Source: an uncultured Deinococcales bacterium
GTDB taxonomy: Bacteria; Deinococcota; Deinococci; Deinococcales; JAAFIG01
DNA: 14,608 nt
Assembly: GCA_964247135.1 (NCBI GenBank)
Contig: CAXTTL010000121.1
Location: 1 to 14,608, forward strand
Direction of reading: 5' to 3'
Shown in pieces: positions 73 through 14,608 of the stretch (position 1 is its first letter; each line of letters begins with the position of its first letter). The position numbers and the translations under genes were made by a program. The notes under the pieces were generated by a model. That model worked only from the letters and a program-made list of their open reading frames with translations, was not told where the DNA came from and searched no databases.

Positions 73-882
73 TTATTCGTCGTCTTGGAATTCATCGTCA
101 ACGCGGTTGGCTTCAACCAGTTTGCGTGCTCGAGCGTTTTGGCGCACTGCAACTCCTGAGAGTAAAATACCAATTTCGTAGAGCACCACGAGCGGTACTG
201 CCATCATGGACATGTTCACCAGGTCTGTGGTCGGTGTCAAAATGGCGCTCGCGGCGAAGATCGCAAAAATCGCGTAACGGCGGATGCTCGAGAGGAATTT
301 AGGATTGACCAAACCAATTTTCGAGAGCAAGTACATCGTGATCGGTAATTCAAATACCAGACCAAAAATGCCGAGGTACATCAAAATATCGCCGATGTAA
401 TCGGCAATCGTTAACTGGGTCGCCACGCCTTCTAAAAATCCACCGCCGAGCAAGAACTGTACGGCATAAGGCAAAATCACATAGTAAGCGAACGCAACGC
501 CCAGACCGAACGACAGTCCGACGCCCAGAATGAACGGTCCACCCCAGCGGCGCTCAGCTTTGGTCAACCCAGGAGCGACGAAAGCCCAAACCTGATAGAC
601 GATGAATGGTAGCGCCAACACGATGCCACCGAACAGCGAAATTTGCAGGGCGGTGGTCAATTGATCGGTCAGGCGCAAGGCGATAATTTCGCCCTTGCCG
701 CCGGTGGCGATGAAAGAGTTAAACGGGGCTTTCAGCAGTTTGAACAATTGGTTGTGATACGCCCAAGCCACACCAGAACCAATCGCCCAGAATACGACAG
801 CGTAAATCAGCCTCAGCCGAAGTTCCTCGAGGTGCGCTAAAAGCGGTGCTTCTTTGAAGCCTGAGTCCGAGTTGCTGTCCAT
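73..882 (-). CDS. tatC: Twin-arginine translocase subunit TatC
   Basis: 269-aa multi-pass membrane protein. It has the TatC motifs PLLAHLEELRLRL, YQVWAFVAPGLTKAERR, FGLVFELP and RRYAI...AILTPTTD, and lies directly downstream of tatA. Confidence 0.97.
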   Translation of the reverse strand: MDSNSDSGFKEAPLLAHLEELRLRLIYAVVFWAIGSGVAWAYHNQLFKLLKAPFNSFIATGGKGEIIALRLTDQLTTALQISLFGGIVLALPFIVYQVWAFVAPGLTKAERRWGGPFILGVGLSFGLGVAFAYYVILPYAVQFLLGGGFLEGVATQLTIADYIGDILMYLGIFGLVFELPITMYLLSKIGLVNPKFLSSIRRYAIFAIFAASAILTPTTDLVNMSMMAVPLVVLYEIGILLSGVAVRQNARARKLVEANRVDDEFQDDE

Positions 883-891
883 GATTTAGAC

Positions 892-1098
892 TTAAGCTTC
901 GGTTTTTTGCTTGGCTGGAGTCGCCACGGGTTCGTCTTTGAATGAACTCTCGAGTTCGCCAGTCAGTTCTTTACTGGCTTTCTTGAATTCGCGGATGCCC
1001 TTGCCCAAGCCCTTGCCGATCTCTGGCAGGCGGTTTGCGCCGAACAAAATGAGTGCCACGACGAGAAGTCCGATAATTTCTGGTGCGCCTAAGTTCAT
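892..1098 (-). CDS. tatA: Twin-arginine translocase subunit TatA/TatE family
   Basis: 68 aa: one TM helix, an [24 protein letters not shown] hinge plus amphipathic helix, and a charged tail. Shine-Dalgarno GGAGG lies at 1105-1109 on the - strand. Confidence 0.96.
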
Positions 1099-1325
1099 GA
1101 TTGACCTCCATCTCGAGGCTGGCTCGAGGAACTAGATTTCTGAGATACGTGGTTCGCTGTTCCTGGGTTCAGGGTACACCTTTTTCCCTGGTTTGATGCA
1201 ACATTTATCCCTTTTGTTCCAGGGGTTGTCTCGCGTTCATTCTGAAACGATTAGCTGAACGGTGGCTGAACGAATACACCCGAGGTTTGAAGTTTATTCA
1301 GGTGCGCTGAGTGTGGTGTTTGTAA

Positions 1326-1331
1326 TAGTCT
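1326..1331 (+). promoter_or_regulatory. Putative -10 element (TAGTCT) of a leaderless pgm transcript
   Basis: TANNNT hexamer 6 nt upstream of ATG 1338, with no Shine-Dalgarno sequence. The same arrangement recurs at other genes in the window. Confidence 0.6.
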
Positions 1332-1337
1332 GTTGGT

Positions 1338-2984
1338 ATGTCACGATCACCTCTTGCCGGATTACCGGCGCCGCACTCGATGCTCGAGAATATTTCACGG
1401 CTCGTTACTGGTTATTACGCGCTAAAACCAGATTTGGATGACATTGCGCAAACCGTGGCGTTTGGCACGTCCGGGCATCGCGGCTCGAGTGCAAAGGGGT
1501 CTTTTAACGAGGATCACATTGCCGCGATCTCGCAGGCGGTCGCCGAGTACCGATTTTCGCAAGGCATTACCGGAAAATTGTTCATGGGCATGGACACCCA
1601 TGCGCTATCCGAACCCGCCTGGGTCACGGCGCTAGAGGTGCTGGTGGGGAACGGGGTGCAGGTTTGCGTCGATCAAAACCGTGGATACACGCCGACACCT
1701 TTGGTTTCTCATGCCATCTTGGGCGCGAACAAAAACTCGAGCATCAAATCCGACGGCATCGTCATCACGCCCAGCCACAACCCGCCGACGGATGGTGGGT
1801 TCAAGTACAACCCGCCGCACGGTGGACCTGCGGACACCAACGCCACCAACGCGATTCAGGCTCGAGCCAACGAACTTCTCAAGCGCAACCTCGAGGGGGT
1901 TAAACGCATACCGTTTGCCAGCGCCTGGACTCAAGCCATCAAGTTCGATTTTGATTCGGCATACGTGAACGATTTGCACAATGTGGTCAATCTCGAGGCA
2001 ATCAAAAACTCGAGCATCCGAATCGGTGTTGATCCGCTCGGTGGCTCGAGCCTTAAAGTCTGGGAATTGATTCGGGATGTCTTAAACATCAAGCTCGAGA
2101 TCGTGAACGACCGTATCGATGCCGCTTTTGGTTTTATGACCGTGGACAAGGATGGCAAGATTCGCATGGATTGCTCGAGTCCAGACGCAATGGCGAGCCT
2201 GATCAAGCTCAAAGACCATTTTGACGTGGCAATTGGCAATGACCCCGACGCCGACCGTCACGGCATTGTCACACCGACAGGTCTCATGAACCCGAACCAT
2301 TATCTGGCGGTCTGCATCAATTATTTGTTCCAAAATCGCCCCAATTGGAACTCGAGCATGGGTGTGGGCAAAACCCTGGTCTCGAGCAGCCTGATTGACC
2401 GTGTGGTGGCGAGGCTCGGGCGGAATTTGCTCGAGGTTCCGGTCGGTTTTAAATACTTTGTGCCAGGTTTAGCCAGCGGCACCATCGGTTTCGGCGGCGA
2501 GGAAAGCGCCGGCGCGAGCTTCGAGCGTTTTGACGGTACGGCTTGGAGCACCGACAAGGACGGCATCATTTTGGGTTTGCTGGCGGCAGAAATCACTGCC
2601 GTCACGGGCAAAACCCCAGACCTGCACTACCTTGCCCTCGAGCAAGAATTTGGCGCAAGCGCTTACACCCGCGAGGACGCACCCGCCAGTCGGGAACAGA
2701 AAAAAGTCCTCTCGAGCATGACCCCAGATTTGGTCACGGCGACCGAACTGGCTGGCGAGCCGATCACCGCCAAGTTAACCCGAGCGCCAGGCAACAACGA
2801 ACCGATTGGCGGGTTGAAAGTCTGCACCCAAAATGCCTGGTTCACGGCGCGTCCGAGCGGCACCGAAGAGTTGTACAAGGTTTACGCCGAGAGCTTTTTG
2901 GGGACAGCCCACCTCGAGCGGGTCGTCAGTGAAGCAAAACTCGTGGTCGGTGAAGCCTTTAAAGCGGCTGGACTCGAGTCGTAG
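1338..2984 (+). CDS. pgm: Phosphoglucomutase (alpha-D-glucose-phosphate-specific)
   Basis: 548 aa with FGTSGHRG, catalytic TPSHNP, metal-binding DPDADRHG, sugar-binding GEESAG and ARPSGTE motifs. Confidence 0.97.
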
Positions 2985-3038
2985 GTTTGAAATGAGATTT
3001 GTTGGTTTTCAACATCTCACGGTAGACTCGCGCATCTT

Positions 3039-3647
3039 ATGCGTGTGATTCTCGCCACCAGCAGTGCAGGCAAACTCCTCGAGTTTAAAGAGGGTTTAAG
3101 TCCTTTGGCGTGGGAATTGCTCGGTTTGGACCAATTTGAGGTCACCATGCCGCCCGAAGACGGCGCGACCTACGAAGAAAACGCCATGATCAAAGCCGCC
3201 AGCATTTCTCTGGCGACCAAAATGGTCGCCCTGGCAGACGACTCAGGACTCGAGGTCGAGGCTTTAAACGGTGCGCCTGGAGTCTACAGCGCCAGGTTTG
3301 GCAACAAGAAAACCGATCTCGAGCGCAATCTGCATTTACTCGAGCACATCAAAAACGTGCCGACACCGCGCAAAGCCAAGTTTGTCAGCGTGATTGCGCT
3401 GGCGCACCCCGACGGTTTTGTCGAAAGCTACCGAGGCGAAATTGAGGGTCTGATTCTCGAGGGACCCCGTGGTGAAGCTGGCTTTGGTTACGACCCGTTG
3501 TTTTTGGTCCCAGAATTGGGCAAAACCTTCGCGGAACTGAGCGTCGAAGAAAAACGCAACATCTCGCACCGTGGACGGGCGCTCGAGGCGTTGCTGCTCG
3601 CGTACAAATCAGGCAATCCACGCCGCGAAGTCAGCAAACTCGAGTAG
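3039..3647 (+). CDS. rdgB: Non-canonical purine NTP pyrophosphatase (dITP/XTP pyrophosphatase, RdgB/HAM1 family)
   Basis: 202 aa with LATSSAGK, ENAMIKA, ADDSGLEVEALNGAPGVYSARF, GFGYDPLF and the C-terminal SHRGRA signature. Confidence 0.96.
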   Translation: MRVILATSSAGKLLEFKEGLSPLAWELLGLDQFEVTMPPEDGATYEENAMIKAASISLATKMVALADDSGLEVEALNGAPGVYSARFGNKKTDLERNLHLLEHIKNVPTPRKAKFVSVIALAHPDGFVESYRGEIEGLILEGPRGEAGFGYDPLFLVPELGKTFAELSVEEKRNISHRGRALEALLLAYKSGNPRREVSKLE

Positions 3648-3697
3648 GGTGCGCCTCGCGCACCGAGTCGTCAATTCAAGCGGTACGCGAGGCGCAC
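3644..3697. repeat. GTAG-type REP doublet, partly degenerate
   Basis: GTAG-GGTGCGC-CTC-GCGCACC-G at 3644-3665, then an inverted partial copy CGGTACGCGAGGCGCAC at 3681-3697 (one mismatch, GTAG end lost). Same family as the element at 8967-9024. Confidence 0.75.
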
Positions 3698-3830
3698 TGC
3701 AAAAACTTAGGTGCTGCCATCCAAACCCTAACATCTCACTATTGTCATGAGCGCGTTATCACCTGCCTTTCACGGCTCGCTCGAGTTTATGAACTAGACT
3801 TTTTAAAATCAGGTTTCAAAGGAGTCGCGC

Positions 3831-5585
3831 ATGGGTGATCTCGAGTCAGGTCAGAAAGACGTTTTAGAAACTTCAATCCCCGAACCCGTCGCCGTTCCCG
3901 TAAATTCGAGGCGCAAGTTTTTACGCGCCGGCGGGGCGTTGGCGGTCACGGCGGCGGTCATTGCGGGCGCTCGGGAAGCCGAGGCGAATTTGCGGGGTTT
4001 CTCGAGCGACGCGAAGCCTCAAAAACCACTTTTGAACACCAGAAAAACCGGAAAGCCCGCGATTCCTGTGCTCGAGATCGTGGTGTTCAACCGCCTTGCC
4101 TTCGGCTGGCGTCCGGGCGATCTGGAGGCGTTTCGCAAATTGCCGGGCAGCAATGGCGAAAAACTGCGCTCATGGCTCGAGGTTCAATTGAATCCAGAAA
4201 AAATGGAGGACAAACTCTGCGATTCCAAACTTGCCAACCTCGAATCGCTCAACAAGCCGCTGGAGGTCGCCTGGGCGGATTATTACAAAAATCTGGACGA
4301 CAAAGACGAGAAAAAATACCAGAAAATGGGCATCCCGACGCTCGAGGCGCGGCTTGCCACGATCACGCGGATGGTCTTCAGTAAGCGCCAGTTGCTCGAG
4401 GTGATGGTCGACTTCTGGCACAACCATTTTAACGTTCATCCCGAACGCGACGACTCGATTCGCCCAACTTTCATGGGTTACGACCGCGATGTGATTCGCG
4501 CCAACGCCTTCGGCAATTTTCGGGTCATGCTCGAGGCGGTCGCCAAACACCCCGCCATGCTGCGATACCTCGACAATGCCTCGAGCAACCGCGCGGGACC
4601 GAACGAAAATTATGCCCGAGAACTCTTCGAGTTGCACACCTTGGGCGCGGAAAATTACCGTGGCGTTGGGCGTCAACGCGACGTGGCGGGGTATGTCCAG
4701 GGGCAGCCCGAAGCTTACGTTGATGACGACGTTTACGAGGCGACAAGGTGTTTTACGGGCTGGCGGATCGACGACAATACCGATGAGCCAGGATTTAGCA
4801 ACACGGGCGAGTTTGCCTTTTTTCAACCCTGGCACGACCGCTTTCAAAAAACCGTGCTCGGACGTTACCTGCCGCCCGATCAGCCCGGCACCAAAGACGG
4901 TCAGGACGTGCTCGATGCGCTGGCGGCACACCCTGGTACGGCGCGGTACATTGCCCGAAAACTGACCCGACGCTTGATTTCGGACAAGCCCCCGCAAACC
5001 GTGATCGATGCCGCCGCCAAAGCCTTTCTCGAGCACAAAGACGCGCCAGATCAAATGAAATTTGTCATTCGCAGCATTGTTTTATCCAAAGAATTCTCGA
5101 GCACCTGGTCTGAGAAAATCAAACGTCCGCTCGAGCGTTTTGTCAGTGGTTTGAGGATTCTCGAGACGGACATCAAATTAAACGAGGACATGCTCTGGAC
5201 GACCTATTACCTGGGGCAAGCCCTGTTCGATCATCGTCCGCCCGACGGTTACCCAGATTTCCGTGAGGCGTGGGCGTCCAGCTCTGGTTTGCTGCGAACT
5301 TGGCAATTTATGAACGGCATCGCCCAGGATTGGGACGACAAATACAAATCTGAAGTTTTGAAAACCAACGCCAATCGCCGCAAACCTATTGAAATCACCG
5401 ATTTTTGGCTCGAGCGATTGCTGGGACGCAAACCCCATCCGCTAGAGATTCGAGATGATCTGATCAAATTCTTGGCGGACAATGGTGATCCAAACGTTGA
5501 GATCGGCGACGACGAAGCCCTCAAATGGCGGGTTCAGAGCATTGTCGGCTTTATTTTGATGGGTCCAGACTTCATGTGGAAATAA
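3831..5585 (+). CDS. DUF1800-family protein with Tat signal peptide
   Basis: 584 aa. Motifs recognised by eye: RLAFG, QLLEVMVDFWHNHF, YLDN, PNENYARELFELHTLG, ATRCFTGW and HPGTARYIARKL. The N-terminus has SRRKFL, a hydrophobic stretch and AEA. SD AAGGAG at 3819-3824. Confidence 0.85.
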   Translation: MGDLESGQKDVLETSIPEPVAVPVNSRRKFLRAGGALAVTAAVIAGAREAEANLRGFSSDAKPQKPLLNTRKTGKPAIPVLEIVVFNRLAFGWRPGDLEAFRKLPGSNGEKLRSWLEVQLNPEKMEDKLCDSKLANLESLNKPLEVAWADYYKNLDDKDEKKYQKMGIPTLEARLATITRMVFSKRQLLEVMVDFWHNHFNVHPERDDSIRPTFMGYDRDVIRANAFGNFRVMLEAVAKHPAMLRYLDNASSNRAGPNENYARELFELHTLGAENYRGVGRQRDVAGYVQGQPEAYVDDDVYEATRCFTGWRIDDNTDEPGFSNTGEFAFFQPWHDRFQKTVLGRYLPPDQPGTKDGQDVLDALAAHPGTARYIARKLTRRLISDKPPQTVIDAAAKAFLEHKDAPDQMKFVIRSIVLSKEFSSTWSEKIKRPLERFVSGLRILETDIKLNEDMLWTTYYLGQALFDHRPPDGYPDFREAWASSSGLLRTWQFMNGIAQDWDDKYKSEVLKTNANRRKPIEITDFWLERLLGRKPHPLEIRDDLIKFLADNGDPNVEIGDDEALKWRVQSIVGFILMGPDFMWK

Positions 5586-5593
5586 GGAGCGCC

Positions 5594-6841
5594 ATGCAAC
5601 ACATCAACCGCCGCGAATTTATGATGGGCTGCTCGGCAGCCATCGCCGCCATGACGGGTTCCAAACTCTCGAGCGTCGCACTTGCCGAAGCGACGGGTTC
5701 ACAAACGCTGGTGACCGTTTTTCTGCGGGGTGGCTGGGATGCCCTGTCGGTGCTGCCGCCACTGGACGGCAAAGACCGAGGCTATTACGAAGCCGCCCGT
5801 CCAACCCTCAAAGTTCCCGTCAAAGGCGACAACAAGGCACTCGATTTAAATGCCCAACTCGGTTTGCATCCCTCGCTGGCGCCACTGTTTGAACTCTACC
5901 AGGCAGGTCATTTGGCGGTCATTCCCGCCACCGGAATGCCGAGCAACACCCGTTCGCATTTTGACGCCCAAGAGTACCTCGAGCTTGGCACGCCCGACGC
6001 CCGCACCAGCCCGAGCGGTTGGGTGACACGTTTTTTGACGGGCACAAAATCGGGTAATGTTGCCGATTTACTCTCCGAAAGTTTATCGCTGAACGACGAA
6101 TTGCCGACCAGCGTGCGCGGCAACCTGAAAGCGGTGGGATTCCCAAGTTTTGACGGTTTTCAACTGGCGGACGACGCCGAGTACCGCAAATTTTTGGGCA
6201 ACGCCTTGACCCGACTCTGGGACGGCGACCAATGGTTGCAACAGGCGGGAATGACCGCGCTTCGGGCGGTGGACACGATCACCAAAATCAATTCGGGCGA
6301 GTACAAACCCGCAGGTGACGCCAAATACCCTGACGACAGCGAGTTCTCCAAGAGCCTGCAAACCCTGGCTCGGGTCATGAAGGCAGGACTTGGCGTTCGG
6401 GCTGCGACCGTGGACTTGGGTGGTTGGGACACGCATCAATACCAGGGCGAAAAAGCCCAAGGTTATTTTGGTAACTTGCTCTCCGAACTGGCTCGAGGTT
6501 TGGCAGCCTTTTTTACCGACTTGGACGGTTTGCGCTCGAGTACCACGGTGGTTGTGATGTCCGAATTTGGACGGCGCTTGGACGAGAACGCCAGTTTTGG
6601 CACAGACCACGGTCATGGCAGCGCCATGTTGGTTTTGGGTGGCAGCGTTGCAGGTGGCAAGGTTTACGGCAAATTCCCAGGACTTGCGCCCGACCAACTG
6701 TACGACCGCGCCGATCTGGCAGTCACCACCGATTACCGCACGGTGTTGCTCGAGGTGATGCAAAAACGGTTTGGACTGAAAAATTCGCTGGATGTGTTTC
6801 CAAACTTTAAGCCAGGTGCAGCGCTCGGCATCATGAAGTAA
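5594..6841 (+). CDS. DUF1501-family protein with Tat signal peptide
   Basis: The start is reassigned to ATG 5594 (MQHINRREFMMG), which follows SD AAGGAG just after the upstream stop, giving 415 aa. Motifs: VFLRGGWDALS, RSHFDAQ, GGWDTH, SEFGR and GTDHGHG. DUF1501 is the usual operon partner of DUF1800. Confidence 0.85.
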   Translation: MQHINRREFMMGCSAAIAAMTGSKLSSVALAEATGSQTLVTVFLRGGWDALSVLPPLDGKDRGYYEAARPTLKVPVKGDNKALDLNAQLGLHPSLAPLFELYQAGHLAVIPATGMPSNTRSHFDAQEYLELGTPDARTSPSGWVTRFLTGTKSGNVADLLSESLSLNDELPTSVRGNLKAVGFPSFDGFQLADDAEYRKFLGNALTRLWDGDQWLQQAGMTALRAVDTITKINSGEYKPAGDAKYPDDSEFSKSLQTLARVMKAGLGVRAATVDLGGWDTHQYQGEKAQGYFGNLLSELARGLAAFFTDLDGLRSSTTVVVMSEFGRRLDENASFGTDHGHGSAMLVLGGSVAGGKVYGKFPGLAPDQLYDRADLAVTTDYRTVLLEVMQKRFGLKNSLDVFPNFKPGAALGIMK

Positions 6842-6844
6842 CCA

Positions 6845-6874
6845 AAAAGCTCGAGTTTTTAAACTCGAGCTTTT
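6845..6874. terminator. Probable bidirectional terminator hairpin between convergent genes
   Basis: Perfect 14-bp inverted repeat AAAAGCTCGAGTTT-TT-AAACTCGAGCTTTT with A/T tracts at both ends, between the stops ending at 6841 (+) and 6885 (-). Confidence 0.7.
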
Positions 6875-6884
6875 AAAATTTGAC

Positions 6885-7151
6885 TTATCGTTTTTTGCCA
6901 ATGCCTGTTGAAAGGTTTTGATCTCGAGCTTCGATTTGGAACGCCCCTGGAACGGGTAAATCTTGCAATTGCTCCAAACTCAGCATTTGCCGCCCCAGCA
7001 TTTCCCAACCAAAACTGGTACGAGCCACCAAGGTCACCTGCACCACGTCGTCATCAAGTCGCTCGAGGATCAATTCTGCCTGCGGACCAAACGCCATGCG
7101 GATGCTGGCTGGTTTTGTCGCCTCGAGTTTGATTTTCGGATGTTGGCTCAT
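6885..7151 (-). CDS. Small hypothetical protein (about 88 aa; start uncertain, alternatives at 7196/7199)
   Basis: Fills the gap between the DUF1501 gene and serA, ends at the shared hairpin and has a globular-looking sequence. A TGn-TAAATT extended -10-like element lies upstream at about 7217-7225 (- strand). No family recognised. Confidence 0.6.
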   Translation of the reverse strand: MSQHPKIKLEATKPASIRMAFGPQAELILERLDDDVVQVTLVARTSFGWEMLGRQMLSLEQLQDLPVPGAFQIEARDQNLSTGIGKKR

Positions 7152-7350
7152 GCTGGTATTTGTGACAGGGCGACTTCGATTTGGCAAGCGTTTCATCATG
7201 AAATGGCGCTCAGACCAATTTAGCACGTTCAAAAATCGCCATGACTTTTTCCGTCACATTGCAAAGCCTTATGCCTTTATTCTCTTCTCATGCTTGACTT
7301 GCCTAGAGCGACCCCTTGTTGGGTTTGTATTTCTTGGGTTAATTTTGGTC

Positions 7351-8949
7351 GTGGCTGAACGTAATCCTTCAAATTGGCGAATCCTGATCTGCGACGAAAT
7401 GCAGTTCAAACCCGAAAACCTGATCCGTGAAGGTTTTCAAATCGAATACATTCCCAACATGCCCAGAGAACAAATTTTAGCCAGGCTGCACGAATTTGAT
7501 TCTTTAATCACCCGCTCGAGAACCAAAGTCGATCTCGAGCTTCTCGAGGCTGGCAGCAACTTGCGCGTGATTGGTCGCGGCGGCGTCGGCGTGGACAACA
7601 TCGATCTCGAGGCGGCATCACGGCGCGGCATTATTGTGCTCAATGCCCCAGAAGCCAATACGGTATCGGCAGCCGAACTCGCCATCACGCTGTTAATGGC
7701 GGCATCTCGAGGGGTGACGCGTTCAGACAAACTGACCCGTCAGGGTGTTTGGGATCGCAAGTATTTGGGACGTGAAGTCAAAGACAAAACCTTGGGCATT
7801 ATCGGTCTAGGACGAATCGGAACCATCGTCGCCAACCGTGCGATGGGCATGAAAATGAACGTGATTGCTTACGACCCGTACATTGCCAATCGCCGCTTCG
7901 AGCTTTTGGGCGTCAAACGCGCCAACACGCTCGAGGAATTGCTGCCCCAAGTCAACGCGCTAACGGTGCACACGCCGTTAACTGAGGAAACCAAAGACAT
8001 GATTGGCGCCCGCGAACTTGCCATGTTGCCCAGCGGCGCGATTGTCGTCAACGCCGCCCGAGGCGGCATCATCAACGAACTTGCCATTGCCGCCGCGCTC
8101 GAGGACAAGCACTTGTTCGCGGCTGGCATCGATGTCTTTGTCGAAGAGCCGCCCAGGCTCGACCACCCGCTGCTCGGGCGCGACGATGTGGTGATTACCG
8201 CCCACCTCGGCGCGAACACGCTCGAGGCTCAAGACCGCGTCGGCTCGGAAATTCTCGAGCGGGTCTGTGCTGCCCTGAATGGCGATGTTTCGCGCGGTGC
8301 GATCAACGCGCCCAAAATGGATGCGGACACCCTGGAAAAAATCGGACCGTACATGAAACTCTGCGAACGCATGGGTCACATGCTCGCGCAACTCGAGATT
8401 GGCGCGGCGCAAGAACTCGAGGTCGAATTCTCGGGGCGTTTTTCGGGCGATTTGGAACCGATTTTCTCGAGCGTTTTGGTTGGTTACCTGCGCGGAATCT
8501 TGGAAGAAACCCCAAACCTCATCAATGCCAGGGCGCTCGCCAAAGAGCGCGGCATTGCGCTGACCTTAAAAACCAGCGAAGAGTCTGAAGATTACGCCAA
8601 CGAAATCAAAGCCAGCATCTCCGACGGCAAACGCGTGCGAAGCGTGGCGGGCACCTGCTTTGGCAAGCAACCGCGCCTGACCCGCATTCGCAATTACCGC
8701 CTCGAGCTTGCCCCTGAGGGTTGGGTTTTGATTTGTACCAACATCGACCAACCTGGCGTGGTCGGCAAGATTGGCAGCATGATGGGCGAGGCGGGCGTCA
8801 ACATTGCCGGAATGCAGCTCGGACGCGACGAACCGGGCGGCAAAGCCCTGTTCGCGCTCAGTTTGGATGCCAAACCGAGCAACGACGTGCTCGAGAAAAT
8901 CAGGGCGCTCGAGTTTATTGAAAGTGCTTTCGCCGTCGAATTTTCCTGA
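7351..8949 (+). CDS. serA: D-3-phosphoglycerate dehydrogenase (long form with ASB and C-terminal ACT domains)
   Basis: Motifs: ITRSRTKV, GRGGVGVDNID, NTVSAAE, Rossmann GLGRIG, VNAARGG, IDVFVEEP and TAHLGANT, plus the ACT domain NIDQPGVVGKIGSMMGEAGVNIAGM. The start is reassigned to GTG 7351 (532 aa), just before the first recognisable strand (RILICD), with TAATTT 5 nt upstream. Confidence 0.95.
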   Translation: MAERNPSNWRILICDEMQFKPENLIREGFQIEYIPNMPREQILARLHEFDSLITRSRTKVDLELLEAGSNLRVIGRGGVGVDNIDLEAASRRGIIVLNAPEANTVSAAELAITLLMAASRGVTRSDKLTRQGVWDRKYLGREVKDKTLGIIGLGRIGTIVANRAMGMKMNVIAYDPYIANRRFELLGVKRANTLEELLPQVNALTVHTPLTEETKDMIGARELAMLPSGAIVVNAARGGIINELAIAAALEDKHLFAAGIDVFVEEPPRLDHPLLGRDDVVITAHLGANTLEAQDRVGSEILERVCAALNGDVSRGAINAPKMDADTLEKIGPYMKLCERMGHMLAQLEIGAAQELEVEFSGRFSGDLEPIFSSVLVGYLRGILEETPNLINARALAKERGIALTLKTSEESEDYANEIKASISDGKRVRSVAGTCFGKQPRLTRIRNYRLELAPEGWVLICTNIDQPGVVGKIGSMMGEAGVNIAGMQLGRDEPGGKALFALSLDAKPSNDVLEKIRALEFIESAFAVEFS

Positions 8950-8966
8950 GTCACCAATATTAAATC

Positions 8967-9024
8967 GTAGGGTGCGCCGTGCGCACCACAATGCCTGAAA
9001 AATGGTGCGCACGGCGCACCCTAC
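8967..9024. repeat. GTAG-type REP doublet (REPIN-like)
   Basis: Perfect 22-bp inverted repeat GTAGGGTGCGCCGTGCGCACCA (8967-8988) and TGGTGCGCACGGCGCACCCTAC (9003-9024) with a 14-nt spacer. Each arm has a GTAG end plus an internal 7-bp stem and 3-nt loop. Confidence 0.85.
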
Positions 9025-9053
9025 CCAAATTTTGCTTTTGGAGGTACTGCCCC

Positions 9054-10217
9054 ATGTTCCGCAAACGCCTGATCGCCCCAGGACCCGTCGAAACCTCTTA
9101 TGAGGTTGGTTTGGCTTTGGCGCAACCCCAATTGCACCACCGCAGCCCAGAAGCCAAAGTCGTGGTCAATAAGGCTCGAGAAGCCCTGCGGGTTGTCGCG
9201 GGATTACCGCTCGAGTCAGGTTTTGAACCCCTGATCGTGACCGCATCTGGCACTGGCGCGTTCGAGGCAGCCCTGGTTTCGCTCGTTCCAGCAGGTTCTG
9301 GCGTGGTCAGCGTCTCGAGTGGAAAATTTGGCGAACGTTGGGCGGACATGGCTCGAGTCTTGGGTTACAGCGTGTTTGAAGAGCGTTTTGAATGGGGAAA
9401 GGCGGTCGATCCGAAAGCGGTCGAAACGCTTCTCAACACCAATCCGAACGCTCGAGCGGTGCTGGTCACGCATTCTGAAACCAGCACCGGAACTTTGAAT
9501 GATGTTGCCGAAATTGCTCGGGTTGCCAAAAGCATCAACCCCGAGATTTTGCTGATCGTGGACGCCATCACCAGTCTTGGGATCGCCGAATTGCGCCCGC
9601 TCGAGTGGGGTTTGGATGCAGTCATCAGCGGTTCGCAAAAAGCCGTTGGAGGACCGCCAGGACTGGGTTTTGTCTAACTTTCACCCAAAGCCATTTCTAG
9701 CCTCGAGCAATCCAAACCGAGCGTGTATTACTGGGATTTAAAAAAAGAACTCAAAGCCCAAAAAACAGGCGAGACCGCCTACACGCCAGCCATCAACTTG
9801 ATCGTGGGACTCAATGCCAGCCTCGAGCCAATGGCGGCGGAAATCTTGAGCATCGGTTTGGAACAATACTGGAAAGACAAAAAACGCTTGAACGATGCGC
9901 TGCTCGAGGCGGCAAAAGCTTTGGGCTGCACCAGTTTCTCGGAATGCCAAACTCCCGCCTGCGTGACCCTCGTCCCGCCAGAACCCGTGACTGGACGCGA
10001 TTTGTTCAAAGCTTTATTGGCTCGTAACGCTCGAGCCATGACTGGACAGGATGCCATCAAAGACAAAATTGTGCGCATCAGTTTCATGGGTCACTTTGAC
10101 CGTTACGACGCGTTGTCATTCGCTGGTTTGCTCGAGGATGCACTGATTGATTGCGGCGCACCGATCACTCGAGGGGCAGGCGTGAACGCGCTCTGGAAGG
10201 CTTTGCAAGACCACTAA
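9054..10217 (+). pseudogene. Class V PLP-dependent aminotransferase (alanine/serine-glyoxylate family), interrupted by an in-frame TAA at 9675-9677
   Basis: ATG 9054 follows SD GGAGG (9040-9044). Motifs: LIAPGP, HHRS, SGTGAFE, GKFGERW, HSETSTG, VDAITS and GSQK. The two track ORFs (ending 9677; 9723-10217) share a frame and read ...PPGLGFV*LSPKAISSLEQSKPSVYYWDL...TPAIN...RISFMG. Joined length is 387 codons. Confidence 0.85.
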
Positions 10218-10219
10218 AA

Positions 10220-10759
10220 TTATTTGGGGATAACGTTTACCACCCATTGCAATATCACAGGACTCGAGCCACGAATGTTTACCCTGGCTTGTACTGTGTA
10301 ATTTCCTGGGAACGTGTCTTTCGGCACGAATAACGAGGCGTTGATGCTGTATTCACCAAACTCAACTCGAGTCACGGTTCTGATCGTGTCATCAAACGCG
10401 ACAACACTATTCGAGTTGGCAATCAATTCGACACCATCGGTTGCTATCCCCAATTTCCATTTTGTTGTAGGTGTTACCAAATAGGTTAAATCTGCAAGCC
10501 CAAGCGGAGCAAAACCATTTGTTCGACCAGACATCAACAATTCCCTCGAGTTGAGCGTAAACAACTCACCAGCACGTAGTCCAAGCCTGGAAATATCACC
10601 AGCATAAATTTTTAAGATCGTATCCATTCCAGCTTTTGCCGTAATGGTGTCCGTAGCGCGAACCAATTTTGGATTAAAAGTACCTCCAGATTCAAACGCG
10701 GCGCAGGAGGTTAAAACCAGCACAAAAACCGAGATCAATAATTTTTGGATCAAAGTCAT
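10220..10759 (-). CDS. Hypothetical lipoprotein
   Basis: Signal peptide with lipobox LTSC and a beta-rich mature region. The start is reassigned to ATG 10759 (MTLIQK, 179 aa), 7 nt downstream of TATGCT. Confidence 0.75.
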   Translation of the reverse strand: MTLIQKLLISVFVLVLTSCAAFESGGTFNPKLVRATDTITAKAGMDTILKIYAGDISRLGLRAGELFTLNSRELLMSGRTNGFAPLGLADLTYLVTPTTKWKLGIATDGVELIANSNSVVAFDDTIRTVTRVEFGEYSINASLFVPKDTFPGNYTVQARVNIRGSSPVILQWVVNVIPK

Positions 10760-10766
10760 GAACAAA

Positions 10767-10772
10767 AGCATA
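10767..10772 (-). promoter_or_regulatory. Putative -10 element (TATGCT) of a leaderless lipoprotein transcript
   Basis: TANNNT hexamer 7 nt upstream of ATG 10759; no Shine-Dalgarno sequence. Confidence 0.55.
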
Positions 10773-10823
10773 ACCTGAATTACGCAGTTTTCTCGAGGGT
10801 TTGGGTATGAAAAAACTCGGGTT

Positions 10824-11891
10824 TTATTTTGGTTTGACCACCAAGGTTTTTGCCAAAATGTCGTGCAATGCTTGCTTACGGGCGGTAAACCCTGCCATCA
10901 CAAAAGGAATTGTGCCAATCAAAATAGACACCAAAAACAACAATAAAAACGATCCAGCCGCCGCTCGAGCTGCCGGACTTGTTGCATCCGAAATGGCAGG
11001 AATGATCGGCAGAATGCCAATAAATAATACGATTGAACCGATCAAAGCAGGAATTTGCTTGGCAAAATACCGCCAGGTGGCTTGCCCAAAACCAATCGGT
11101 TGTTCGGACAAATTCGTGACTTTCAGCCCCAATGCCATTTTACCCAGTGTGGCTTGTTGTTTGCTGCTCTCGAGCAGCGCAAAGTACAACCAATTGACCA
11201 ACAAGCTAAAAATTAACGACAACAATATTGGTGCGACCAACGACACGGCTTCGTTCTGAATGGTTTCAACACTGCCGCCAGCAGCCACCGACCTCGAGAT
11301 TTCATTGAGGCGAACGACGGCGTTGTTCAAACCAAAAATGCTCGAGATGATGCTGGTGATGACTGATACCAAGATTCCGTCGATGATGGCTGCCAGAAAA
11401 CGCATCCAAAATCCTGCGTTTTCAGTCGATGCTCGAGCCGATTCGGTCGGCATGACGGGCGTCATTTTAGCGATTGGTACGGCTTGGCGAACGTCTTGGT
11501 GAAACGATTCGACCTGAACGGTTTTTGGTGGGGCAACCTCGAGCGGCGCCGGAATGACGGTAGGTTTTTCGGGAATGCGCTCCACTCGAGCGGCAGCCGC
11601 CTTGGTGTGGGCGCGTTGACCGGCGCTTTGCACCACCGTGAAAAAATTTGCCAAAGCGTCTTTTTCGGTGTTGACCGAACCCCGAATTAACTCGCCAGCG
11701 ACGCTCGAGATCACCAGTTCGTCGCCTTCGCGGTTGACTTTGGCAATCTCTACCAGGCTGGCGCGTTGCAAACCGTTCGCGTTTAAGTACAAGACTTCAG
11801 ATTCGGTGCAAACCAGCGCCGCGTCGTTTGTCTCGAGTTCGCTGAGAACGGGTTGATTGAGGATTTGTTTGAGTTGATTTAAGAATTCCAT
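10824..11891 (-). CDS. RDD-family membrane protein with an extra N-terminal soluble domain
   Basis: 355 aa. The C-terminal RDD domain has AGFWMRFLAAIID, QATLGKMALGLKV and RKQALHDILAKTLVV. It is preceded by a soluble domain of about 90 aa and a Pro/Ala-rich linker. Confidence 0.88.
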   Translation of the reverse strand: MEFLNQLKQILNQPVLSELETNDAALVCTESEVLYLNANGLQRASLVEIAKVNREGDELVISSVAGELIRGSVNTEKDALANFFTVVQSAGQRAHTKAAAARVERIPEKPTVIPAPLEVAPPKTVQVESFHQDVRQAVPIAKMTPVMPTESARASTENAGFWMRFLAAIIDGILVSVITSIISSIFGLNNAVVRLNEISRSVAAGGSVETIQNEAVSLVAPILLSLIFSLLVNWLYFALLESSKQQATLGKMALGLKVTNLSEQPIGFGQATWRYFAKQIPALIGSIVLFIGILPIIPAISDATSPAARAAAGSFLLLFLVSILIGTIPFVMAGFTARKQALHDILAKTLVVKPK

Positions 11892-11906
11892 CGTGCCTCA
11901 CAATAA

Positions 11907-11943
11907 CACTCGAGCATTGCGGTTTAACCGCCGTGCTCGAGTG
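11907..11943. repeat. Intergenic hairpin, possibly the terminator of the S41 protease gene
   Basis: CACTCGAGCA-TT-GCGGTT-T-AACCGC-CG-TGCTCGAGTG: a 10-bp outer stem and a 6-bp inner stem, starting 6 nt after the protease stop codon. There is no clear U-tract. Confidence 0.6.
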
Positions 11944-11949
11944 AAATTT

Positions 11950-13281
11950 TTACTTGGTGGCGACCACGCCCAAAAGTGACAATGCTTTGCGAACTTGGGC
12001 ATCGGTTGAGATATTGACAATCGCTTCGCCTTGTTGACCCGTGGTTTTGACTCGAGTTGGCTCGTCTTGGTAGGTGAACTGTCCGGTTTTGTCGGCTTTG
12101 AGTTTCAGGGTTTTGCCGTTGACTTTGACTTCAATGTTCGTTCCAGGTGCGGCGTTGATGCCCTGCAAGGTCAAGAGTTTTGGATAACGTGTGTCCGAGA
12201 CAGGATAATCTGGTGTCACACCACGTTTGTTGATGCTGTTGCGTTTTGGAGTCAGCCATTCCTCGAAACTGACATTGACTTGCCCACCGTTTGAAAGCGC
12301 AATTGGAGCGTTCGCCACGCCTTTACCATAGGTTTTTTCGCCGACGATTTTTGCGCGCCCGTTTTCTTGCAGGCTGCTCGAGACGATCTCGCTGGCGCTG
12401 GCGCTCGAGCCGTTGACCAAAACCACCAACGGTCCGAGGTAATCGCTTTGTTGCACACCCGCCTGGAATTCGATGTTGACTTTTTTGGTGTTGTCGCGGG
12501 TCACAAAAACATCACCCTTGGACAGAAAAGTATCCGCCACGCCTTCAGCCATGCTGACCAGACCGCCCGGGTTGTTGCGCAAGTCCAGAATCATGCCTTT
12601 GACGCCCTTGGCTTTGAGGCTGGCAACGGCGGTTTGGAGTTGCTCGGTGACTTTCTGATTCAAGAAATCTGAAATTGAAACATAACCGATGTTTCCAGGC
12701 AAAACGGTGGCATTGACGTTCACGACCACAATTTTTTCTCGAATCATGCTGAGGTTTAAACGTGTGACCCCCCGGGCAATCGTGACTTTGACCGTGCTGC
12801 CCTTTGGTCCGCGAATTTTACGAACCGCCTGATCGAGCGGCAATTTTGTGACATCTTCGCCGTTGACCGCAATGATCAAATCACCTGCCTGCATTCCGGC
12901 TTTGGCGGCGGGTTGACCGTTGAAAACAGTTTCGACCTGTACGCCCAAACCATCTTTGGTGGCGGGCGTTAAACCCAAACCGATACCAAAAAAACCACCA
13001 GTCAAGTTCTCGTTGTTGGTGCTGGTTTCACTCGGTGGGATGTAAAACGTAAACTCGTCATCGAGCGCGTACAACATGCCCGACAAAGCACCCTGCATCA
13101 ATTTGTCAGGGTCGGTGGTGCGCAAATATTTTTCACGCAAGGCTTGGTACGTCTCGAGGAACGCCTTGCCTGAAGGCGTGTTTAAAGCTTCATCTCGAGG
13201 GTTCGCGGCGAGGGTCACGGCTGCGGTAACTCCGCACAATGCCAAGGCAACAATGCCAAAAATCAAAAATCGGTTCTTCAC
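11950..13281 (-). CDS. S41 family C-terminal processing protease (CtpA/Prc-like) with PDZ domain
   Basis: 443 aa from a GTG start, with a signal peptide and a PDZ domain (GFFGIG...PAAKAGMQAGD...IRGPKGS). Also LDLRNNPGG, catalytic SASASE and KTYGKG. Confidence 0.93.
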   Translation of the reverse strand: MKNRFLIFGIVALALCGVTAAVTLAANPRDEALNTPSGKAFLETYQALREKYLRTTDPDKLMQGALSGMLYALDDEFTFYIPPSETSTNNENLTGGFFGIGLGLTPATKDGLGVQVETVFNGQPAAKAGMQAGDLIIAVNGEDVTKLPLDQAVRKIRGPKGSTVKVTIARGVTRLNLSMIREKIVVVNVNATVLPGNIGYVSISDFLNQKVTEQLQTAVASLKAKGVKGMILDLRNNPGGLVSMAEGVADTFLSKGDVFVTRDNTKKVNIEFQAGVQQSDYLGPLVVLVNGSSASASEIVSSSLQENGRAKIVGEKTYGKGVANAPIALSNGGQVNVSFEEWLTPKRNSINKRGVTPDYPVSDTRYPKLLTLQGINAAPGTNIEVKVNGKTLKLKADKTGQFTYQDEPTRVKTTGQQGEAIVNISTDAQVRKALSLLGVVATK

Positions 13282-13288
13282 AGCCGTC

Positions 13289-13294
13289 AGTCTA
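13289..13294 (-). promoter_or_regulatory. Putative -10 element (TAGACT) of a leaderless S41 protease transcript
   Basis: TANNNT hexamer 7 nt upstream of GTG 13281; no Shine-Dalgarno sequence. Confidence 0.6.
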
Positions 13295-13353
13295 ACGCCC
13301 TTGGTTGAGCGATGAATGTGCGTTTGAGCAAAAACAGTTCTCGAAACTCGAGC

Positions 13354-13875
13354 TTATTGGCTTGCGTCTGGAATTTGTGCCGCGTGGTGTTTGGTGTGCC
13401 AAGCGCACAAACGCAGCACCTCGAGCGTGGTTAGCTCGCCAAAAAAAGATTGGGTGACGCAAATTGTGTCCAGCAATTCGGGCTTCTCGAGTTTTTTGGC
13501 GTAACGTTTTAGGGCTTCAAAGGCAATTTCATGGTTGCGTTGTAAATCGGCGCGGCTTAAATTGGCTCGAGGTTCTTGCCCAGGATTGAGGGCGCGTCCG
13601 TCTTCGGTCACATGACCTTTTGGCATGACAAGCGCTGGTTTGTTTTTTAATGCTCGCTCGAGACAGACCGCGAAGAACGCGTTGGCAGTATTCAGGTGGT
13701 CTGCGATTTTGGCGGGCGCCCATTTGCCTGGCGTCACAGGTTCGTACAAGTCTGCCTGCTCGAGTTTGGCTGTAAATTCGGTTTTGGCAAGTTGCAGGTT
13801 CTCGAGTACCTGCTCAAGCCCGATGCCTTGCCGCTCGAGAAAGGCTTTGGGTAGGTAATCTTGAAGCTCAGGCAT
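13354..13875 (-). CDS. DinB/YfiT-superfamily protein
   Basis: 173-aa helical protein with PGKWAPAKIADHL and a C-terminal HTKHHAAQI, which supply the His ligands typical of DinB four-helix bundles. Confidence 0.8.
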   Translation of the reverse strand: MPELQDYLPKAFLERQGIGLEQVLENLQLAKTEFTAKLEQADLYEPVTPGKWAPAKIADHLNTANAFFAVCLERALKNKPALVMPKGHVTEDGRALNPGQEPRANLSRADLQRNHEIAFEALKRYAKKLEKPELLDTICVTQSFFGELTTLEVLRLCAWHTKHHAAQIPDASQ

Positions 13876-13881
13876 TTTAAA

Positions 13882-13887
13882 ATTCTA
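13882..13887 (-). promoter_or_regulatory. Putative -10 element (TAGAAT) of a leaderless DinB-family transcript
   Basis: Near-consensus TAGAAT 6 nt upstream of ATG 13875; no Shine-Dalgarno sequence. Confidence 0.6.
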
Positions 13888-13895
13888 ACTCGAGT

Positions 13896-14608
13896 TTAGA
13901 TCAATCGTCTTAAACCAACGATTGCTCCAGCCGCAAAGACTGCATTTGCCAACCACGCCGCAATCGCGGCTGGAATCGCTTGGGCGGCGGCAAGGTTGAA
14001 TCCAATTTGCCACAAGCTCCAATACGCTGCCATCAAGCCAATGGTTGCAGCAAAACCCCAAGCGCGGTTGGAGAGCGTCAAACCGAGTGCACCGCCGACC
14101 AGCGCCATCATGAGCGCCGCCAGGGGGTCGGCAAAGCGACGTTGCAACTTAAAATTTGCATCGTAAACCTCGCCGCTCGAGAGGCTTGTTGAATTGTTCA
14201 TTGCTCGAGCCATTAACTCGGAAGTTGAAACCTGGTCACTCGGGCGTAAATCTGGTTCAATGGGTGGTGTAAACGCAAAAACGTGCATGGTTTCAGGAAT
14301 TTCTTGAAAACCGTCGCTCGAGCTGCTGGGTTTATAAAAAACGTTGTACAACTCCCAGGTTTTGGCTCTTCCATCCCACAAGCCTTTGGTGGCGGTGTAA
14401 ATTCCAGATTGTGTGACCACCATCACCCCCGATAAATCTGCGATGTTTGGATTTTGTTCTCGAGGGGCGAGCGAACCCACATGAAACAAATCACCGTGAT
14501 CGTTGGCGTAACTTTTCAAACCCTGAACCCTGGGTGGTTCGGTGTGAATGATTGCATAATAGGTTTTCAGGAAATGGGCATCGGCACTGGGACGCCAGAT
14601 GTTTTCGT
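13896..14608 (-). CDS. LptF/LptG (YjgP/YjgQ) family permease, 3' part; 5' end lies beyond the window
   Basis: The frame stays open from the window edge (ENIWRPSADAHFLKTYY...). A periplasmic beta-rich region is followed by RRFADPLAALMMALVGGALG...AAWLANAVF, the three C-terminal TM helices typical of LptF/G. Confidence 0.8.
   Translation of the reverse strand, partial: ENIWRPSADAHFLKTYYAIIHTEPPRVQGLKSYANDHGDLFHVGSLAPREQNPNIADLSGVMVVTQSGIYTATKGLWDGRAKTWELYNVFYKPSSSSDGFQEIPETMHVFAFTPPIEPDLRPSDQVSTSELMARAMNNSTSLSSGEVYDANFKLQRRFADPLAALMMALVGGALGLTLSNRAWGFAATIGLMAAYWSLWQIGFNLAAAQAIPAAIAAWLANAVFAAGAIVGLRRLI

Follow-up and report, generated by a model that had tools for sequence, protein, structure and literature searches.

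CTCGAG as a highly iterated palindrome of a Deinococcales bacterium and of other lineages of Deinococcota

We analysed a 14,608-nucleotide stretch of an uncultured Deinococcales bacterium (contig CAXTTL010000121.1 of assembly GCA_964247135.1; contig C121, hereafter the window) together with the whole assembly of this source bacterium (G000), and found that the six-base palindrome CTCGAG recurs throughout both at tens of times its expected frequency. The excess is independent of coding, the sites are conserved between congeners with turnover mainly through transitions, the word has altered the proteome, and the trait is spread over the phylum Deinococcota. CTCGAG is thus a further case of the known class of highly iterated palindromes (HIPs), with another word in another phylum. 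We tentatively propose, as a reading that is possible rather than probable, that it is kept by a conversion-type drive acting through a candidate sequence-specific reader protein.

Abundance of CTCGAG in genes and spacers

The window holds exactly 114 CTCGAG sites between positions 129 and 14464 (site set 129..14464, unstranded), about one per 128 bp, matching the hand count of about 114 in a preliminary description of this DNA. In 200 dinucleotide-preserving shuffles of the window the count averaged 2.77 (sd 1.58, maximum 7), and none of the 200 reached 114. By our own rough gene calls, codon phase 0 (Leu-Glu) accounts for 55 sites, phase 1 for 18 and phase 2 for 27, and the other 14 lie in non-coding DNA. 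All ten positions that the preliminary description had listed as intergenic do lie between open reading frames (ORFs), and its list was a slight undercount, positions 949, 6923 and 7062 being outside the gene calls as well.

The assembly as a whole (5,091,702 bp in 386 contigs, longest 115 kb, 52.7% GC, 84% complete) contains 33,925 copies, or one per 150 bp. The expectation is 1,371 copies under a zero-order model (24.7x), 963 under a first-order Markov model (35x) and 2,351 under a second-order one (14x), which answers the preliminary description's proposal of a genome-wide hexamer comparison: CTCGAG is the top over-represented hexamer of the genome, and the next palindrome, TTTAAA, stands at 3.7x. 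The ratio under the maximal-order Markov model was 1.24; this model carries no information here, since nearly all occurrences of the pentamers CTCGA and TCGAG come from CTCGAG itself. The word is present in all 386 contigs at 2.6–11.3 per kb (median 6.8), so that the enrichment extends well beyond the single contig in which it was noticed.

To separate coding from non-coding sites we used our rough gene calls (4,244 ORFs picked by codon-usage score, 82% of the DNA). CTCGAG density was 6.62 per kb in coding versus 6.85 per kb in non-coding DNA, with 81% of the sites inside called genes. The 6,373 non-coding copies compare with ~205 expected from non-coding composition, an observed-to-expected ratio (O/E) of 31. 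Of the coding copies, phase 0, which always reads Leu-Glu, holds 17,286 (63%), phase 1 holds 4,053 and phase 2 holds 6,242. When codons were permuted synonymously within each gene, preserving every protein and the codon usage of each gene, five runs gave 3,829–3,918 copies (about 3,860) versus the 27,581 observed, a 7.1x excess that by phase was 5.7x (phase 0), 14x (phase 1) and 11x (phase 2). Three runs in which codon order was shuffled gave ~1,600 copies, a 17x excess. The excess over the synonymous shuffle therefore excludes codon and amino-acid bias, as the preliminary description had anticipated, and the signal survives codon- and dinucleotide-preserving shuffles alike.

One might attribute the excess to codon usage, amino-acid composition or dinucleotide bias, or to a fault of assembly or library construction. 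Such a reading could draw on the majority of coding sites in phase 0 and on GC-rich relatives, in which part of the CTCGAG count parallels the GAGCTC count, pointing to codon usage there. Against the shuffles, the Markov ratios, the non-coding excess and the recurrence of the excess in every contig and in 18 of 18 other family assemblies its probability is negligible, and we regard codon bias or artefact as excluded. That recurrence in particular makes an artefact of an XhoI-based library unlikely. Bases flanking the sites are weakly biased (G at −1 and C at +1 in 38–39%, A at −3 and T at +3 in 37%), and the unit is therefore the hexamer, not a longer repeat or a mobile element. A dispersed repeat of the repetitive extragenic palindromic (REP) or miniature inverted-repeat transposable element type was rejected on the same grounds, no flank position exceeding 39% for one base, and on the intragenic location of most sites.

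Conservation, protein imprint and distribution over the phylum

The one-mismatch neighbours of CTCGAG in G000 are near baseline (0.5–1.7x) and none is drained; the exception is CTAGAG at 0.08x, which includes CTAG, a word avoided in general. Levels are highest for the three transition neighbours (1.2–1.7x), as decay of the abundant word into them would predict. CTCGAG outnumbers most single-position neighbour classes about 16- to 26-fold, and CACGAG, CTGGAG and CTAGAG by more. With neighbours this close to baseline, all six bases are therefore needed.

Conservation was measured by aligning the window to the syntenic regions of two congeners (G004 and G005, 82–83% nucleotide identity), that is, for a single 14.6-kb region in three genomes. 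Sixty-four CTCGAG sites were present in all three genomes, 46 in two and 34 in one. At the places that are not shared, the alternates were mostly single transitions (CTCGGG/CCCGAG 23, TTCGAG/CTCGAA 17, CTTGAG/CTCAAG 7). Sites of G000 were intact in 78 of 114 cases in G004 and 87 of 113 in G005 (68–77%), compared with 37–39% for control hexamers at the same coding phase and 39–46% for non-coding controls. For phase-0 codon pairs, the amino-acid pair was kept at 49 of 54 and 51 of 54 CTCGAG sites versus 76–77% of other pairs, and, given a kept amino-acid pair, the nucleotides were identical in 71% and 92% of cases versus 48–50% for others. In this region CTCGAG is both kept and newly made in each lineage.

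The word has reshaped protein sequences and not just codon choice. Leu-Glu is the most over-represented dipeptide of the predicted G000 proteome (22,316 copies, O/E 2.38; Glu-Leu 1.01, Ser-Ser 1.64), and CTCGAG spells 77% of these pairs and takes up 44% of the CTC and 45% of the GAG codons of the genome. We followed this in serA, whose conserved part (7366..8949, plus strand) carries 14 CTCGAG sites in the window, by a codon-aware alignment of 18 orthologues from 18 genomes. CTCGAG of the family (as Leu-Glu or x-Ser-Ser) often stands at positions where outgroups have differing residues, such as Leu-Leu, Ile-Thr, Val-Asp, Phe-Glu and Val-Thr-Gln. The site at alignment position 735 is common to all 12 aligned family genomes and to three genomes of two other families.

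Across a survey of 364 genomes of the phylum (relatives' genome sizes were rounded, so densities are approximate; G325 enters the tallies only), all 18 other genomes of the source family, from five genera, carry ~4.3–6.8 CTCGAG per kb. Genome G032 has 3.6 per kb and many genera of families f2 and f5 have 2–3.5 per kb. In genus g19, G149 and G150 reach ~7–9 per kb and G151 has 0.3 per kb; genus g7 of the same family (111 species), which is Deinococcus-like by our assignment, has ~0.01–0.4 per kb. Genera g9 and g13 appear to be Thermus-like and Meiothermus-like, respectively. Hexamer ranks were taken from DNA samples of 15–40 kb in 13 genomes. CTCGAG ranked first in G004, G005 and G150 (each 27x), G248 (18x), G011 (14x), G177 (12x), G032 (10x) and G186 (8x); it ranked 4–9 in G021, G019 and G263 (5–7x) and was unremarkable in G151 (1.2x). 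It is the top hexamer in samples from three families beyond the source family, and the excess spans at least five families, namely the source family and parts of four others. The trait is thus ancient and occurs widely in the phylum; its strength varies by degrees, and some lineages lack it or show its reverse.

Genus g7 avoids the word, the opposite of its sister lineages: in the sample G020:C1 it is at 0.1x expectation and at 0.2 of its one-mismatch neighbours, which marks a specific avoidance, and an XhoI-family nuclease was found in 0 of 111 genomes of the genus. G151, the sole g19 species lacking the excess, has a small genome of 2.3 Mb in 5 contigs, with no serA match at E ≤ 1e-50 and no 5-methylcytosine (m5C) or PF01555 methyltransferase. 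By analogy, it recalls the loss of HIP1 in reduced cyanobacterial genomes.

A HIP-class word and the process behind it

HIP1 (GCGATCGC) has been a curiosity of cyanobacteria for three decades. CTCGAG resembles it as a short GC-rich palindrome found at tens of times expectation in genes and spacers. The likeness extends to conservation at orthologous places and to a phylum-wide distribution with lineages that lack the word (PMC5861425, PMC4390886), and the HIP1 mechanism is itself not agreed upon. Together with its extreme rank, its presence in all frames and non-coding DNA, and its lineage-wide occurrence with exceptions, these features bear out the HIP-like signal claimed in the preliminary description. 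CTCGAG differs in being a six-base rather than an eight-base word, in its phylum, and in its density, ~6,660 per Mb versus 500–2,500 per Mb for HIPs (PMC4390886). HIP1 also has conserved orphan methyltransferases for CGATCG and GATC; none conserved for the word or its core was found in the trait-bearing genomes, with specificities unassigned and other enzyme families unsurveyed in relatives. A near parallel is GGCGCC of Calothrix PCC 7103, likewise a six-base palindrome and an extreme hexamer outlier of its genome (PMC4390886); that word is confined to one cyanobacterial lineage with a word-specific methyltransferase (PMC4390886), whereas CTCGAG extends over at least five families and the search for a matching methyltransferase was negative. 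A term look-up found CTCGAG in PMC4752239 and not in PMC4390886 or PMC5861425, in each case in the text available, and no earlier description of its genome-wide hyperabundance was found in the literature searched, supplementary tables lying outside that search.

The force acts on DNA as such, needs all six bases and is ongoing, weak per site and strong in aggregate. Under the conversion-type drive that we favour, a lineage-wide process reading all six bases would keep CTCGAG at about one per 150 bp in resident DNA, in genes (in every frame) and spacers, and at about half that density in mobile-looking DNA, at a cost in codons and amino acids. Where two DNA copies that differ at a site meet, whether as sister copies of the chromosome, as partners in recombination or as intermediates of repair, the allele bearing the intact word would win slightly more often. 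The putative reader would be a protein of restriction-enzyme-grade specificity, and the scaled advantage might be about 3 per site, our estimate from the motif-to-neighbour ratios of 16–26 and not from a fitted model. Several points weigh against this proposal. No gene or protein for such a reader turned up, and the gene could be missing from G000 because the assembly is 84% complete. Comparative data cannot tell conversion drive from weak natural selection per site. The one-mismatch neighbours are undepleted, though strong mismatch-fed repair might deplete them; the split into coding and non-coding sites relies on rough gene calls; and the scaled advantage is derived from count ratios.

It is unlikely, though the best placed of the alternatives, that CTCGAG is an uptake or transformation signal that labels DNA as self, either for the machinery of natural transformation or for the recombination of DNA that enters the cell, with uptake bias as the driving force. 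Uptake signal sequences (USS) of Pasteurellaceae and DNA uptake sequences (DUS) of Neisseriaceae are lineage-specific, occur as inverted pairs in terminator-like hairpins, leave an imprint on proteins and are explained by molecular drive and not by a benefit of each single site. CTCGAG is like them a genome-wide lineage word with pairs in terminator-like hairpins and a protein imprint, and its family-wide conservation, even spread over the genome and lower density in mobile-looking DNA would suit such a role. Known uptake sequences are longer (~9–12 bp), non-palindromic and about ten times sparser (~1 per kb), whereas CTCGAG is a 6-bp palindrome at 6.7 per kb, a density at which a fragment should be taken up hardly better for having one copy more. 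We know of no uptake specificity in Deinococcota, and no uptake receptor was identified. ComEC is present in three of four trait-bearing genomes searched (G011, G150 and G032) but also in the traitless G151, and was rejected as a trait marker. For HIP1, an uptake signal is now proposed (PMC13756078) and the word is said to improve transformation (bioRxiv 10.1101/2024.09.10.611283).

The preliminary description had put forward repair coupled to a methyltransferase. In the very-short-patch-type model of Elhai, proposed for HIP1 as well as for other HIPs, GGCGCC among them (PMC4390886), a CTCGAG methyltransferase would mark the word and a mismatch nuclease would correct near-sites towards the methylatable form. 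We searched G000 with the methyltransferase profiles PF00145, PF01555, PF07669, PF02384 and PF02086, and relatives with the same set minus PF02384, comparing the matches by BLAST and examining gene neighbours. Four enzymes of G000 pair with nucleases and are therefore ordinary restriction systems for other words: an m5C methyltransferase on C14 beside an NgoPII-type nuclease (GGCC; module C14:36040-37936), an N4/N6 methyltransferase on C36 beside a PvuII-type nuclease (CAGCTG; module C36:19235-21059), an N4/N6 methyltransferase on C207 beside a weak NotI-like nuclease, and a D12 methyltransferase (C320:1061-2985, minus strand) beside a SacI-like nuclease (PF09566, 29.7 bits against a cut-off of 19.3). 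An m5C methyltransferase on C178 is an orphan, two N4/N6 methyltransferases on C189 and C4 have no assigned partner, and the remainder comprises two MmeI-like enzymes, one HsdM and one helicase fusion.

No m5C, PF01555 (beta-class), D12 or Eco57I-family methyltransferase orthologous across the trait-bearing genomes was found within the families surveyed, for which specificities are unassigned, and the Eco57I-family genes formed no cluster shared across these genomes. The orphan C178 enzyme has orthologues in only three of 18 family relatives (G001, G002 and G007). G011, a family genome in a single contig, has one m5C gene that is 28–31% identical and non-orthologous to those of G000, no PF01555 match and two D12 genes. 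On the other side, each well-surveyed trait-bearing genome has some methyltransferase of unassigned specificity. The route through NPPY/DPPY/SPPY motifs, for which 20 of the 43 motif-bearing G000 proteins were scanned against Pfam, gave no candidate; these 20 were housekeeping enzymes, one rRNA-type MTS methyltransferase and two DUF559 genes.

The nuclease side of the repair model fared no better. Vsr (PF03852) was found neither in G000 nor in any of 18 family relatives or three g19 genomes, against 28 of 364 genomes overall. Of the 18 family relatives 16 carry the Vsr-like DUF559, but so do 80 of the 111 genomes of the word-avoiding g7, and as a candidate cause it was rejected as not trait-specific. 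In G032, where CTCGAG is at 10x, a Vsr gene and a SNF2-type helicase gene come immediately after that of an m5C methyltransferase (G032:C11:83950-86457), an arrangement that fits the model. Enzymes that read the word do exist in the phylum: XhoI/PaeR7I-type systems recognise the same six bases with full specificity, and an XhoI-family nuclease with an adjacent SPPY methyltransferase occurs in seven of 364 genomes, in family f4 and elsewhere. One carrier, G021 (system at G021:C1:74659-76835), yet has CTCGAG at 5.8x expectation; the XhoI-family copy in G356 is broken by stop codons. The XhoI-type nuclease (PF04555) is absent from G000 and from all 18 family relatives, in a search that works as the seven carriers show, and the route through its partner methyltransferase was dropped, the nearest G000 relative (the C189 gene) being only 25–30% identical. 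A resident XhoI-type system is thus not indicated, and restriction normally depletes its word, as with GAGCTC, GGCC and CAGCTG in G000, where CTCGAG is instead enriched. m5C methylation of CTCGAG has been described in a Halorubrum strain (PMC8112702). With no Vsr and no XhoI-type nuclease found in the family, no shared methyltransferase found among those surveyed and transition neighbours undrained, the repair model is weakened, and we consider it improbable.

The words of the paired restriction systems are nearly absent from G000 (GGCC 0.016x, CAGCTG 15 copies, GAGCTC 0 copies). GAGCTC, which is CTCGAG read backwards, would be expected ~1,371 times in 5.09 Mb, and GAGCCC/GGGCTC has 10 copies. 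A shared cause for this absence and the CTCGAG excess was considered and rejected, as the SacI-like nuclease with its D12 methyltransferase explains the absence; this module is flanked by genes for a P450 and a molybdopterin oxidoreductase. Of the 364 genomes, 20 encode the nuclease, among them G000, 10 of the 18 family relatives, G150 and six of genus g7. GAGCTC is scarce in those six without any excess of CTCGAG, so its absence from G000 is ordinary restriction avoidance and a separate matter. CGGCCG, GGGCCC, CGTACG, GGATCC, CCGCGG, CAGCTG and GCATGC each have at most 17 copies in G000; for avoided palindromes beyond the NgoPII-, PvuII- and SacI-type words, no matching gene was found in this 84%-complete assembly.

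Natural selection on CTCGAG as a site bound by an abundant protein of the nucleoid, of segregation or of replication, each copy being weakly beneficial, seems to us as remote as the repair model. Conservation beyond the neutral expectation speaks for it, as does a genome-wide and fairly even placement in which gaps of 400–800 bp number 1,544 versus 2,104 under a geometric model. The exact requirement for six bases is unusual for architectural proteins, the tail of the spacing distribution is about random after a short-range exclusion of ~15 bp (our estimate), and no candidate binding protein was found. In the literature, HIP1 has been argued to be under selection and tied to chromosome structure (PMC5861425), and in Nocardia an orphan CTCGAG methyltransferase accompanies motif clusters at the replication origin (PMC4752239); the Nocardia clusters are local to the origin, whereas the present sites are genome-wide.

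Returning to conversion-type drive, a broader version, which we offer as a conjecture and consider doubtful, is that Deinococcota carry an ancient, methyltransferase-independent CTCGAG reader that biases recombination, repair or uptake towards word-bearing alleles and has been lost or reversed in the Deinococcus-like and Thermus-like genera. If so, the bias would be strong enough to rewrite ~13,000 dipeptides of one proteome, and the trait may have gone unnoticed because the two best-studied genera are those in which it was lost or reversed. Because some of the relatives with a weaker excess, such as the roughly 3-Mb genus g13 at 8.4x, seem to be in culture, the 30-year-old HIP problem could then be tested outside cyanobacteria. 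If CTCGAG is a second, independent instance, iterated palindromes would arise generally from some process of DNA handling and would be no quirk of cyanobacteria. The divergence within g19 (two species with the dense word, the third nearly without it) and the neighbouring genus that avoids the word provide natural contrasts for finding the cause. In practice, the 2.4x distortion of Leu-Glu matters for codon and substitution models, for binning, and for taxonomic k-mer signatures of metagenome-assembled genomes, and in cloning XhoI would cut G000 DNA every 150 bp if it is unmethylated.

Site spacing, site-poor DNA and local features of the window

HIPs are also marked by quasi-periodic spacing at 10–90 kb; in G000, which is in 386 contigs, spacing was examined at short range only. 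It is near geometric and close to random (mean 148 bp, coefficient of variation 0.96). Spacings below 25 bp are short of expectation (2,363 versus 5,027), with multiples of three in excess. No two neighbouring sites are 6 apart, as this would produce GAGCTC, and 11 pairs are 8 apart. The short-range deficit probably results from coding constraint together with the instability of close direct or inverted repeats. At the other end, 13 gaps exceed 1.6 kb versus 0.7 expected; these are mostly AT-rich (27–40% GC) and several are ORF-poor. Among the AT-rich stretches free of the word are C13:11893-14536, C70:14168-16418, C20:7986-9673 and C1:102561-104482, which are 1.7–2.6 kb long at 27–33% GC in a 53% GC genome and have no or few called ORFs.

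The contigs of lowest density (~3.4–3.6 per kb, about half the usual) carry mobile-looking genes, including an HNH nuclease with an ATPase, SSB, a helicase, a methyltransferase-helicase fusion and a weak terminase match; the word is still more than tenfold over expectation in them. The beta-class N4/N6 methyltransferase gene C189:4856-5632 has no CTCGAG in 777 bp versus ~5 expected; it lies between DinB and FtsZ, beside an unannotated gap of ~840 bp. Virus contigs with dense CTCGAG were, among the matches listed, mostly GC-rich. One complete virus in IMG/VR (G367; 110,308 bp with terminal repeats, 62% GC) has 318 copies (8.6x), with one every 15 bp in its first 120 bases, and 0 copies of GAGCTC, AGGCCT or GTTAAC. 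CGATCG is likewise raised in it (7.3x), and because the two words are almost equally enriched this virus says nothing about phages of the source family.

The 13 ORFs of the window are ordinary housekeeping genes, in keeping with the earlier statement that no responsible gene is visible there. Their products include TatC, phosphoglucomutase, Ham1, DUF1800/DUF1501, SerA, a class-V aminotransferase, an RDD protein, an S41 peptidase, DinB_2 and LptF/G. Paired CTCGAG sites form hairpins because the word is self-complementary. Just past the DUF1501 gene, an inverted repeat at 6845..6874 (unstranded) has perfect 14-bp arms around a 2-nt centre, with one CTCGAG at the heart of each arm (6850 and 6864), and looks like a terminator hairpin. 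Between two minus-strand genes, a compound hairpin read from the sequence at 11907..11943 (unstranded) has outer 10-bp arms CACTCGAGCA and TGCTCGAGTG, each with one CTCGAG (11909 and 11936), and may likewise serve as a terminator. A further intergenic pair, 11 bp apart, lies upstream of the phosphoglucomutase gene (1112..1128, unstranded).

The serA ORF begins at 7096; homology to relatives starts only from about residue 90, and the upstream part (window 7096-7370) contains stop codons in congeners, so the true start is probably downstream of 7096. The class-V aminotransferase match (Aminotran_5) is split over two ORFs (window 8979-9677 and 9723-10217), the second lacking its own Pfam match, which may represent a frameshift, a pseudogene or an assembly error. 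Between serA and this gene lies a REP-like element (window 8955-9038) that contains no CTCGAG. It has a perfect inverted repeat of ~21 bp with a stem around GGTGCGCCGTGCGCACC, and similar copies occur at ~42 places in G000 and in relatives.

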